64,000 nt of DNA from Candidatus Campbellbacteria bacterium GW2011_OD1_34_28 (lineage in GTDB: Bacteria > Patescibacteriota > Minisyncoccia > Phycocordibacterales > UBA12079). This document shows, one piece after another, positions 8,598 through 33,682 of this stretch. A program made the position numbers and the translations under genes. Numbering within the stretch: position 1 is the first letter of the stretch; the number at the start of each line of letters is the position of its first letter. The stretch is from positions 490,303 through 554,302 of the forward strand of contig CP011215.1 of assembly GCA_001029775.1 (NCBI GenBank), written 5' to 3'. The notes below the pieces were generated by a model. It worked only from the letters and a program-made list of their open reading frames with translations, was not told the origin of the DNA and did no database searches.

Positions 8598-9209
8598 ATG
8601 ACCAATTGTCGATATCTAATTGGAATAGACGAAGTGGGTAGAGGACCTGTTGCTGGCCCTGTGGCTGTTGGAGCGGTTTTGTTTTATGCAGAAAACAAAA
8701 CTGTCATGGAAGAAAGATTTTCTAACTTTAAAGATTCAAAAAAACTTTCTCCCAAAAAAAGAAATGAATGGTTTGAAAATATTAAAAAAGCAAAACATGA
8801 GGGACTATTAGATTACAAAGTTGTTTTTGTTGATAATAAAAAAATAGACGAGTTTGGAATTGCTCCATCAATCAGGTCTTGTATAAAAAATTCTTTACAA
8901 TCTCTGTGTAAGACGTCGGACGTCTTACATAAAGATTGTCTGGTGTTGTTGGATGGGGGATTAAGAGCACCAGAGGAATTTGTAAATCAAAAAACTATTA
9001 TTAAGGGGGATGAAAAAGAAATGGTAATTGCTCTTTCTTCAATCGTGGCAAAAGTCACCCGTGACAGTCTGATGTGCAAGTTAGCAAAAGAATACCCCCA
9101 ATATGGTTTGGAAAATCACAAGGGTTACGGAACAAAAGCACATATGACCGCAATAAAAAATAACGGTATCTCTGAAATTCATCGAAAAACTTATCTAAAG
9201 AATATTTAA
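8598..9209 (+). CDS. rnhB: ribonuclease HII
   Basis: GIDEVGRGPVAGP, DSKKL, IIKGD, KGYGT motifs. Confidence 0.95.
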   Translation: MTNCRYLIGIDEVGRGPVAGPVAVGAVLFYAENKTVMEERFSNFKDSKKLSPKKRNEWFENIKKAKHEGLLDYKVVFVDNKKIDEFGIAPSIRSCIKNSLQSLCKTSDVLHKDCLVLLDGGLRAPEEFVNQKTIIKGDEKEMVIALSSIVAKVTRDSLMCKLAKEYPQYGLENHKGYGTKAHMTAIKNNGISEIHRKTYLKNI

Positions 9210-20506: not shown

Positions 20507-20629
20507 GCCGAGGTGGCGAATTGGATTAAAAACAAACTGCTTTGTTTTTAATCCGGTTCTGAGCGAAGCGAAGAAATTTCCGTTATCGAGTGAAGCGAGA
20601 TAGGAAATAGGTGGAAGACGCACTAGCCT
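20507..20629 (+). repeat. duplicated 5' half of tRNA-Leu(TAG) with ~91-bp insert in the D-loop
   Basis: GCCGAGGTGGCGAATTGG [insert] AGACGCACTAGCCT matches the downstream tRNA. Confidence 0.85.
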
Positions 20630-32313: not shown

Positions 32314-32379
32314 TTTTAAAAGTATATCATTTATATTTTTTACGAAAAGCGTGGGGGCGCTTTTCTTTGACTATGATGA

Positions 32380-32460
32380 CTCGACTTCCAGTTCTAATCG
32401 AAAATTTCGTCTTCACTTCGTTACAACTCATTTTCGATAAGAACTCGCTGTCCCGTCGCT
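32380..32460 (-). repeat. orphan copy of the tRNA-linked core (Ser subtype)
   Basis: minus strand GGGACAGCGAGTTCTTA...TTAGAACTGG matches the Ser element core GGGGCAGCGAGTTCTTA...TTAGAACTGG. Confidence 0.7.
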
Positions 32461-32549: not shown

Positions 32550-32621
32550 GGCGTAGTGGCGAAGTGGAAACGCTGTGGTCTGCAAAACCACCATGCGCCG
32601 GTTCGATTCCGGCCTACGCCT
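32550..32621 (+). tRNA. tRNA-Cys(GCA)
   Basis: GGCGTAG/CTACGCC acceptor, GCA anticodon, U73. Confidence 0.95.
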
Positions 32622-32627
32622 CAAAAT

Positions 32628-32709
32628 GCCTGGGTGGCGGAATTGGTATACGCGCACGACTTAAAATCGTGTCTCGCAAGAGATGCGGGTTCGACTCCCG
32701 CCCTAGGCA
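32628..32709 (+). tRNA. tRNA-Leu(TAA)
   Basis: GCCTGGG/CCTAGGC acceptor, TAA anticodon, variable arm. Confidence 0.95.
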
Positions 32710-32746
32710 CATTGAAATTTTTTGAAATTTCAATACAATAGTGTAT

Positions 32747-32945
32747 TATCCGCTCGTAGCTCAGCTGGATGAGAAGCGTTGAAGCTTCGAATCCGAGCGA
32801 AGCGAGGTGGAAGAGTATTCCTTTGAAATGTAAGAGTCGGATGCTAATACACTTAGCATGGACTTCAGAGGTTTTACACAAAAGTAAAAGTAGAGATATC
32901 CGCTCGTAGCTCAGCTTCTGCCAAAGGCAGACAGGGTCCGAGCAA
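32747..32945 (+). repeat. two duplicated 5' fragments of tRNA-Lys with D-loop inserts and an antisense anticodon-arm copy
   Basis: TATCCGCTCGTAGCTCAGCT at 32747, 32897 and 32990; TAAGAGTCGGATGCT at 32831-32845. Confidence 0.85.
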
Positions 32946-32992
32946 CAATCATTGAGACAGACAAGTCTGTAAAATCATCATGGATTTAGTAT

Positions 32993-33065
32993 CCGCTCGT
33001 AGCTCAGCTGGTAGAGCATCCGACTCTTAATCGGCAGGTCGAAGGTTCGATCCCTTCCGAGCGGA
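32993..33065 (+). tRNA. tRNA-Lys(CTT)
   Basis: CCGCTCG/CGAGCGG acceptor, CTT anticodon. Confidence 0.93.
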
Positions 33066-33157
33066 CAAGTAGACCCGAAGGAGGGTAAACGAATTATTAG
33101 ATAATTTTATATTTCTCGTTTTGAATATATTTCAATTTTGAGATTTAAATTTTTAAC

Positions 33158-33316
33158 ATGTCACAAGATCAATTGATAAAACTGGCTTGTCAGAGTTGTA
33201 AAAGAATCAATTACTGGAGCAGAAAAAATAAAAAACTGGTTCAAAAAAAGATTGAATTGAAGAAAAGATGTAAATGGTGTGATAAGCAAACAGTTCACAA
33301 AGAAGTAAAAAAATAA
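33158..33316 (+). CDS. rpmG: 50S ribosomal protein L33 (not in ORF track)
   Basis: MSQDQLIKLACQSCKRINYWSRKNKK...IELKKRCKWCDKQTVHKEVKK. Confidence 0.93.
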   Translation: MSQDQLIKLACQSCKRINYWSRKNKKLVQKKIELKKRCKWCDKQTVHKEVKK

Positions 33317-33447: not shown

Positions 33448-33682
33448 CAAAAAGAAGACCCGCAAGGGTTTTTCTTTTTGTTGGGTCCACGAACAAAGCA
33501 ATCTAAATTGCTTTGTGTAGGACGAGAACGGCGGAGCGGTTTACAATTTTAGTAAAATTTTCCAACAAAGAAAATCTTACTAAAATTGTCGCGAGCCGCG
33601 TCCAGCGATACTTAGACTTTTTGAAACACGAAGTGTTTCAAAAAGACTTAGTAATCGCGGGACAGTCCTCGTGGGCCCGCAA
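33448..33682 (+). repeat. tRNA-linked 3' element (Trp)
   Basis: split antisense end at 33483-33529, core 33530-33663, exact 19-bp direct repeat 33664-33682. Confidence 0.9.

Follow-up and report, generated by a model that had tools for sequence, protein, structure and literature searches.

The genome of Candidatus Campbellbacteria bacterium GW2011_OD1_34_28 (the source genome, G000) is a single contig of 752,630 nt with 34.8% GC and is 99.5% complete. The stretch of DNA analysed here, called the window, comprises 64,000 nt, and positions refer to it unless a contig is named. It contains tRNA genes in the order Cys-Leu-Lys-Trp. tRNA-Cys(GCA) (32550..32622) and tRNA-Leu(TAA) (32628..32710), identified by tRNA and Rfam calls, are the upstream neighbours of the locus, which lies between tRNA-Leu(TAA) and the intact tRNA-Lys(CTT) (32993..33066, 68.6 bits); these genes and the parts of the leader described below are on the forward strand. 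Rfam gathering scores at the locus were reached by the four tRNAs alone and by no other family, including RtT. The tyrT/rtT repeats of E. coli are tandem units that repeat a tRNA end, in a 3'-end design. Group I and group II intron families were absent among the Rfam matches up to E = 10 at the locus, and the Lys pseudo-copies described below have no 3' half of their own, so that there are no exons to be rejoined as in an intron. The T-box model gave no match at the tRNA-Lys locus; a sub-threshold T-box match of 53 bits lies elsewhere in the source genome (G000:C1:447891-448026). The ORF list contained no ORF of at least 60 aa that is confined to the 243-nt leader of tRNA-Lys, and a small GIY-YIG gene was not found at the tRNA-Lys(CTT) locus itself.

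Some further features were seen in the surroundings. An imperfect inverted repeat of 28 nt (32378-32457) is located upstream of tRNA-Cys, and the gap between tRNA-Lys and tRNA-Trp holds a short ORF (~33158-33316) which is kept in relatives and presumably resembles ribosomal protein L33. Behind tRNA-Trp, an element of the T-loop type (33449-33682) consists of a terminator, a 3'-end antisense, a hairpin core and a 19-nt sense copy. Elsewhere in the source genome, ARAGORN called two tRNAs with undetermined anticodons (G000:C1:5172-5252 and 309860-309951); TGG was the only Pro isoacceptor called, and Val(GAC) was not called.

The leader is a real and organised structure. The original prediction was that the 5' 20-mer of tRNA-Lys is present three times, and exact matches indeed start at 32747, 32897 and 32990; since the third belongs to the gene itself, only the first two are pseudo-copies. 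The stacks differ within the genus. The source genome has unit A, a 150-nt cassette (32747..32896), followed by unit B, a second, unrelated cassette of 93 nt (32897..32989), whereas the same-genus genome G006 has two tandem copies of unit A immediately upstream of tRNA-Lys and lacks unit B, and this difference defines the boundaries of both units.

Unit A starts with three leader bases (32747-32749) and pseudo-copy 1, which corresponds to tRNA-Lys nt 1-19 (32750..32768). Then follows hairpin A of a short D-loop module (32767..32794), in which G18/G19 pair with the closing CC of the module and which has an internal tandem GA mismatch. A GCGAAGC mini-hairpin with tandem GA pairs and the purine-rich end of the module (32793..32811) was assigned from its sequence and from passages of PMC13037366. 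Next come an altered sense copy of tRNA nt 21-29 with a linker (32812..32830), the perfect antisense of tRNA-Lys nt 23-37 including the anticodon (32831..32845, exact reverse complement) and a 7-bp local hairpin with a conserved stem and a variable loop, which traps the 3' part of the antisense (32841..32859). The linker is also found in the Asn leader of the source genome. A simple decaying copy was considered for 32812-32830; the identity of this part in G006 and the linker shared with the Asn leader argue against it. The 11-mer of the mini-hairpin occurred 9 times in the window at up to one mismatch, compared to a shuffled mean of 0.39, and 22 times exactly in the genome, which is rich in palindromes that contain it.

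Unit B carries pseudo-copy 2, which matches tRNA-Lys nt 1-17 (32900..32916), and, judged by fold and comparison, a 6-bp GC hairpin with an 8-nt linker in place of nt 18-21 (32917..32939); tRNA-like sequence returns at 32940-32944 (nt 22-26). The unit is predicted to fold on itself. Its linker is also present in two Cys leaders (L030 and L148), and a similar hairpin precedes GIY-YIG genes at tRNA-Pro in relatives. The same D-loop junction had originally been described for the 5' ends. This applies to copy 1 and to the 5' element of tRNA-Leu(TAG) (20523-20615), which follows the same junction logic and has a third hairpin that copy 1 lacks, but not to copy 2, which ends at nt 17 instead of nt 19 and has a different insert.

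Unit A of the source genome and the second unit of G006 agree in all of their first 102 nt, and about ten differences were found in the rest. Since neighbouring genes of the two genomes are only about 93% identical, this indicates selection or recent transfer and not decay. The antisense 15-mer is unchanged in both G006 units, and two more unit A variants on contigs of run X1 have changes in the linker and the spacer, no change being listed for the 15-mer; these contigs have a gap at unit B, which is not counted as evidence. A search of 401 genomes of the order gave the exact Lys hairpin A in 2, and the hairpin-plus-linker pattern of unit B was seen in 1 of 61 genomes (the source genome alone) or, if shortened, in 2 of 19 genomes of the family; an exact-pattern search across GTDB yielded 7 loci. 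Sequence patterns therefore have a short reach. Among 42 Lys(CTT) loci, 8 had a 5' copy of any kind and 34 had none, and empty as well as filled tRNA alleles were observed among the loci compared.

The hairpin module in tRNA and 23S rRNA genes

The insert of unit A is a short form of a covarying hairpin module that is found in the order. A model search gave matches in 34 of 151 genomes of the order and none in 60 Patescibacteria genomes drawn phylum-wide. The long form is present at seven places in the source genome, at Leu(TAG), Ser(TGA), Ser(GCT), Asn, Thr(CGT) and Thr(TGT) and in a repeat behind tmRNA; in the same genome, 23 tRNA genes have a sense or antisense copy of themselves within 400 nt. 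The helices of the module covary, with double changes in 8 of 11 pairs compared to 0 of 500 shuffles (17-copy model, the structure being derived from the same sequences). This covariation fits DNA and RNA alike and does not separate the two. Outside the source genome, 32 hits to the module were sorted by eye: 10 follow G19, 12 follow D-arm nt 21-27, 3 lie in 23S rRNA genes and 7 outside a tRNA copy. The module is stacked three times at one D-loop (L042) and is inserted in non-tRNA repeat sequence at two loci (L048 and L002). In Lys(TTT) leaders of relatives, hairpin A comes after nt 24, and sense and antisense of the anticodon loop form a tight hairpin behind it; the Lys leader of G005 has the long module and no antisense. 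Three loci (L116, L122 and L123) have a disrupted copy of tRNA-Gln(CTG) in which the loop of the module's third hairpin encloses an intact gene for the same tRNA. Two further observations concern the repeats themselves. The Lys(TTT) leader of G004 (L054) contains a 9-nt piece which is part of the Lys(CTT) antisense and mismatches its own tRNA, hinting at a possible transfer between isoacceptor loci, and the source genome has heptamer runs, one of which is built from a D-loop heptamer.

Insertions of the D-loop module were also found in 23S rRNA genes (L112, L115, L120, L267 and L286); the native, uninserted site of the source genome lies near position 9200 of G000:C1. Here, the rRNA itself supplies the 5' arm of hairpin A; the antisense of this arm, two more hairpins and a duplicate of the target follow downstream, a four-helix layout that, as in the leaders of other genomes, was read by eye from complementarity. 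In L286, the antisense follows the local 23S variant. When 23S genes were sampled by a neutral pattern, 2 of 24 had the insertion and one more had a variant of it. The long hairpin A of the tRNA leaders would then be a captured 23S target, and we infer as a rule of the family that a spare copy of the target is folded into a hairpin. Near 263 tRNA genes, C(GNA)G triloops were found 53 times (reverse complement: 9), GNRA loops 23 times (versus 10) and cUUCGg loops not at all. According to the passages of PMC13037366 compared, GCGNAGC mini-hairpins are stable as DNA, but the one RNA counterpart given there, a GAAA tetraloop form, is much less stable.

Junction positions in tRNA genes

The original prediction placed the breaks of both 5' and 3' elements at the elbow of the folded tRNA. 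Junction positions were tabulated for 272 tRNA genes, grouped by how the loci were obtained, after genes that could not be numbered, were longer than 95 nt or were duplicates had been dropped; kin in this table are not independent and interrupted copies are under-counted. Copies of the 3' end begin at nt 55-58 in 12/14 cases in the source genome itself, in 31/42 at loci picked by tRNA, in 7/11 at loci picked by nuclease and in 8/17 at loci picked by module. The corresponding numbers for downstream antisense arms that end at nt 52-55 are 16/18, 31/35, 8/12 and 10/13, and for 5' copies that end at nt 19 they are 3/6, 2/20, 0/15 and 12/23. Thus, breaks at the elbow were confirmed for the 3' junctions, which cluster in the T-loop, but not for the 5' junctions, which at unselected loci are spread from nt 11 to nt 55. 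A fixed position is thus seen for the T-loop junction; the one in the D-loop is specific to a single module, which is inserted at other sites as well.

Recognition of the folded tRNA would call for a process at the RNA level, for example reverse transcription that stalls at, or is primed from, the corner of D- and T-loop and thereby sets both types of junction. The tight clustering of the T-loop junctions and the position of the module after G19 in most 5' elements of the source genome would agree with such a process, but the scatter of the 5' junctions largely refutes it on that side, insertions of the module at GG are also seen outside tRNA sequence and in 23S rRNA genes, and the genome has no RVT_1 match for a reverse transcriptase. 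Moreover, the homing endonuclease SegB of phage T4 reads a T-loop motif as DNA sequence, as described in the parts of PMC2330249 compared. The invariant GG and TTC sequences could account for the junction bias without recognition of folded RNA, and we regard an elbow mechanism as very improbable.

Deleted islands of tyrosine integrases could leave scars of a similar appearance. An intact tRNA gene with an upstream 5' fragment is a recognised island signature, described for 159 of 3919 islands in the sections of PMC4383910 consulted; there, as in the Lys leader, the target is restored by a duplicated end and the displaced 5' fragment lies upstream in the same orientation. In the same sections, the islands are 2-200 kb long and carry an integrase gene between tRNA and fragment, and the known crossover subsites are the anticodon loop, the T loop and the T/acceptor junction and not the D-loop. 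The Lys leader, in contrast, has 243 nt, D-loop junctions and no integrase, the only tyrosine recombinase match of the genome lies more than 300 kb away, and the signature comprises neither antisense copies nor conserved modules. An integrase scar is therefore extremely improbable.

Small GIY-YIG genes and the origin of the cassettes

The source genome encodes two small GIY-YIG proteins and three Y1 transposases. At tRNA-Thr(TGT) (L035, G000:C1:396500-397300), the downstream copy holds the D-loop module and, in its T-loop, an 83-aa GIY-YIG gene between inverted repeats, and ten tandem copies of a D-loop heptamer are located upstream. The second GIY-YIG gene (97 aa, G000:C1:368081-368900) is followed by dense CGTC-type palindromes with the mini-hairpin of the tRNA module. 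Neither protein matched a named NCBIfam family above cut-off; the best solved relative of the tRNA-linked protein is found among UPF0213 proteins. Relatives of the 83-aa gene lie near a tRNA or tmRNA gene at 17 of 30 loci of the family, 9 of 29 loci of the order and 18 of 60 metagenome loci, and in the order and metagenome sets all of the tRNA-near genes are on the same strand as the tRNA or tmRNA gene. The usual order is 5' copy, hairpin, GIY-YIG gene and intact tRNA. At one locus (L074), a unit with the gene precedes two tandem units without it, whose hairpin resembles that of unit B. A three-hairpin module and a GIY-YIG gene were not found together in one 5' cassette at any locus examined, so that the link of an enzyme to unit A is indirect. 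In other lineages, GIY-YIG cassettes with long inverted repeats are present at nt 7-10 of, or just before, Ala, Glu and Arg tRNA genes (L159, L197, L201-L216).

By duplicating one end of a host tRNA, the cassettes leave an intact gene, and hairpin modules that can be exchanged interrupt the remaining copy. Close relatives differ by gain, loss and tandem amplification of units, and in many 5'-copy cassettes a tiny GIY-YIG gene separates the pseudo-copy from the intact tRNA. On balance, we consider it probable, if by no means certain, that the tRNA-Lys leader consists of two stacked, gene-less cassettes of a small selfish DNA family which lodges in stable-RNA genes of the order and whose target copies are folded back into hairpins. 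Several lines of evidence argue for this: the A+A and A+B stacks and the presence of 5' copies in 8 of 42 Lys(CTT) loci; the triple stack of the module and its insertion in non-tRNA repeats; the 23S insertions with target antisense and duplicate, including the local tracking in L286; the GIY-YIG genes near tRNA and tmRNA genes, with the units of L074 and the module and GIY-YIG gene in the Thr(TGT) copy; and the bias to C(GNA)G triloops, the DNA-stable GCGNAGC mini-hairpins (PMC13037366, in the passages compared) and the covariation of the module. Mechanistically, a GIY-YIG nuclease acting in trans would nick single-stranded tRNA-gene DNA or the hairpins, recombination via the invariant GG and TTC motifs and the shared 5' 17-24 nt would move modules between loci, and fold-back copying of the local target would yield the antisense arms. 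The pattern of L074, a gene-bearing unit followed by gene-less tandem units, is the one proposed for the Lys leader. Against selfish cassettes stand the indirect enzyme link of unit A, the 102-nt identity of unit A, with the selection or recent transfer it indicates, and a statement in the parts of PMC11270868 compared, where GIY-YIG genes in rRNA insertions of CPR bacteria are judged to be outside spread by homing. Furthermore, a 23S insertion must also be tolerated as RNA.

A purely passive origin was weighed as well. Without a dedicated enzyme, tandem duplication, template switching at hairpins and gene conversion among REP-like repeats could build and homogenise such leaders in a cell that lacks mismatch repair. 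Indeed, no MutS match was found in the 99.5%-complete genome, many palindromes share the same mini-hairpin (22 exact 11-mers), heptamer runs occur, one of them of a D-loop heptamer, and conversion between inverted repeats would keep an antisense perfect. The fixed T-loop junctions, the covarying multi-helix module and the nuclease genes inside the same kind of cassette, however, indicate a specific system, and we judge an entirely passive origin to be quite improbable.

Selfish cassettes of the kind proposed share features with several known systems. In the Ssn/SRM system (Chenal et al. 2025, PMC11893778, in the parts compared), tiny single-domain GIY-YIG proteins are tied to strand-specific ssDNA hairpin repeats, and the source genome has its 97-aa GIY-YIG gene among CGTC-type palindromes. 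The degenerate hairpin motif of SRM, however, had no hit on either strand of the whole genome, the tRNA-linked protein probably belongs to a subfamily other than Ssn, and the repeats described here carry copies of host genes; the main text of PMC11893778 mentions neither tRNA nor CPR. SegB of T4 is a free-standing GIY-YIG homing endonuclease whose gene lies among tRNA genes and whose site includes the T-loop motif; it cuts dsDNA and drives homing of a whole region (PMC2330249, in part). The proteins found here have ~83 aa, their genes lie within duplicated ends of tRNAs, and what they leave behind are hairpin cassettes without a gene. Non-intron insertions in CPR rRNA genes include short (<200 bp) unclassified 23S insertions and insertions that encode GIY-YIG proteins; the short ones have been proposed to be IVSs cleaved by RNase III (passages of PMC11270868). 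The D-loop module is likewise present in 23S genes, but the main text of PMC11270868 does not mention tRNA, and a target duplication with an antisense arm was absent from the passages compared. As in REP/BIME elements with their RAYT proteins, modular palindromes are stacked in arrays and the genome has three Y1 transposase matches; the Y1 genes are, however, flanked by other repeats, where the module was not seen by eye. A literature search of listings and abstracts, which covered few subscription papers, found no published description of tRNA-linked copies or GIY-YIG cassettes in CPR bacteria.

The antisense 15-mer and folding of the precursor

The 15-mer at 32831-32845 is, as originally stated, the exact reverse complement of tRNA-Lys(CTT) nt 23-37 (33015-33029) and spans the anticodon; by chance, a 400-nt stretch would hold about 2.5e-7 such matches. 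A sigma-70-like promoter candidate upstream (32712..32739) matches the consensus at 10 of 12 positions and, by this match alone, would start transcription at ~32746, at the start of unit A, so that the leader would be co-transcribed with the tRNA. Its equivalent is visible in G006, and a second candidate lies at 32722-32749; in total, 5 promoter-like sites were found compared to a shuffled mean of 2.0. A weak internal candidate just upstream of the intact gene (32952..32981, 9/12) is not above chance. Three RNA runs yielded at most one short contig each, from other sequences, and carry no weight for or against expression of the leader. The predicted fold of the full precursor has 14.1 of the 15 antisense nucleotides paired to the tRNA; a cloverleaf has to be enforced at a cost of 14.9 kcal/mol, compared to a mean of 6.0 kcal/mol (range 4.9-10.6) over 20 shuffles of the 15-mer. 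When the leader is folded by itself, the downstream trap hairpin pairs with 9 of the 15 nucleotides. The duplex energies of the antisense are -26.3 kcal/mol with the tRNA, -12.7 kcal/mol with the trap and -7.1 kcal/mol with the local sense copy. Sequestration of the anticodon in the precursor, as had been suggested, is thus thermodynamically possible, but the leader alone traps most of the 15-mer and the feature is rare.

Among 252 tRNA genes, 51 had a 5' copy. Strong antisense to nt 23-38 (-16 kcal/mol or better) was found in 12/51 leaders with a 5' copy and in 5/201 without, a comparison among loci that are not independent of each other; the natural 3' stem strand is contained in some of the copies. 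Perfect host-specific 15-mers are also present at Phe (L050, G006) and, in another family, at Glu (L117), and imperfect ones at Asn. At Lys(CTT), the antisense accompanies a 5' copy in only 3 of 42 loci, and one more locus passed the energy threshold but lacks a 5' copy. The host-matched antisense design is therefore recurrent yet optional. In several Ser, Thr and Val leaders, the D-arm antisense has mismatches opposite G18/G19, bases which, by eye, pair with the module, and pairing with the local copy is therefore favoured.

The leader could act as an RNA switch, in which the co-transcribed 15-mer alternates between the local trap and the anticodon arm of the pre-tRNA and blocks maturation or creates a substrate for RNase III, whose gene is present in the genome; such a switch could be a cassette that was domesticated by the host. 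The promoter-like site that would start at the first base of unit A, the conserved core of unit A, the cost of the cloverleaf, the host-specific 15-mers at Phe, Glu and Asn and the excess of strong antisense in leaders with a 5' copy all point in this direction. On the other hand, both features coincide in just 3 of 42 Lys(CTT) loci and 34 lack a 5' copy, the G005 leader has the long module without antisense, 9 of the 15 nucleotides are trapped in the leader, which is transcribed before the tRNA, and several leaders end, by eye, in a -10-like hexamer of their own before the intact gene. In addition, the analogous antisense in 23S insertions presumably cannot serve to block a working copy, and a ligand-sensing part is not evident. 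A switch thus appears unlikely.

Alternatively, the antisense arm may be a cis-encoded, host-matched guide which, as ssDNA or RNA, base-pairs to the anticodon arm in an empty tRNA allele or in the precursor it belongs to and, together with the module, forms a branched substrate for the 83-aa GIY-YIG nuclease or RNase III. Such an element would program itself by copying its guide from the stable-RNA gene it has landed in, hairpin A would be a frozen, 23S-derived guide, and the arm may have been domesticated to gate tRNA maturation. We hold this to be distinctly unlikely. If the leader consists of selfish cassettes, as we prefer, the 15-mer would be the 3' strand of a target-derived helix that locks up the extra copy and not a regulator of the real anticodon. 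The calculated energies do not fit a pure self-locking role, since pairing with the tRNA (-26.3 kcal/mol) is far stronger than with the local copy (-7.1 kcal/mol) or the trap (-12.7 kcal/mol), and the perfect retention of the Lys 15-mer is not explained by selfish cassettes.

In sum, the tRNA-Lys locus taken alone is one more instance of its kind; its value lies in two cassette types side by side and in a relative with a different stack. If the leader is indeed built of selfish cassettes, very small genomes would be home to a modular family of parasites of essential single-copy RNA genes, each of which copies one end of its host gene and folds the extra copy away. tRNA pseudo-copies, unclassified 23S insertions and tiny, uncharacterised GIY-YIG nucleases would then be parts of one system, and the nucleases would gain a concrete substrate. 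If the antisense arm is functional, it would represent a new control of tRNA supply or a new design of a guide-directed nuclease.
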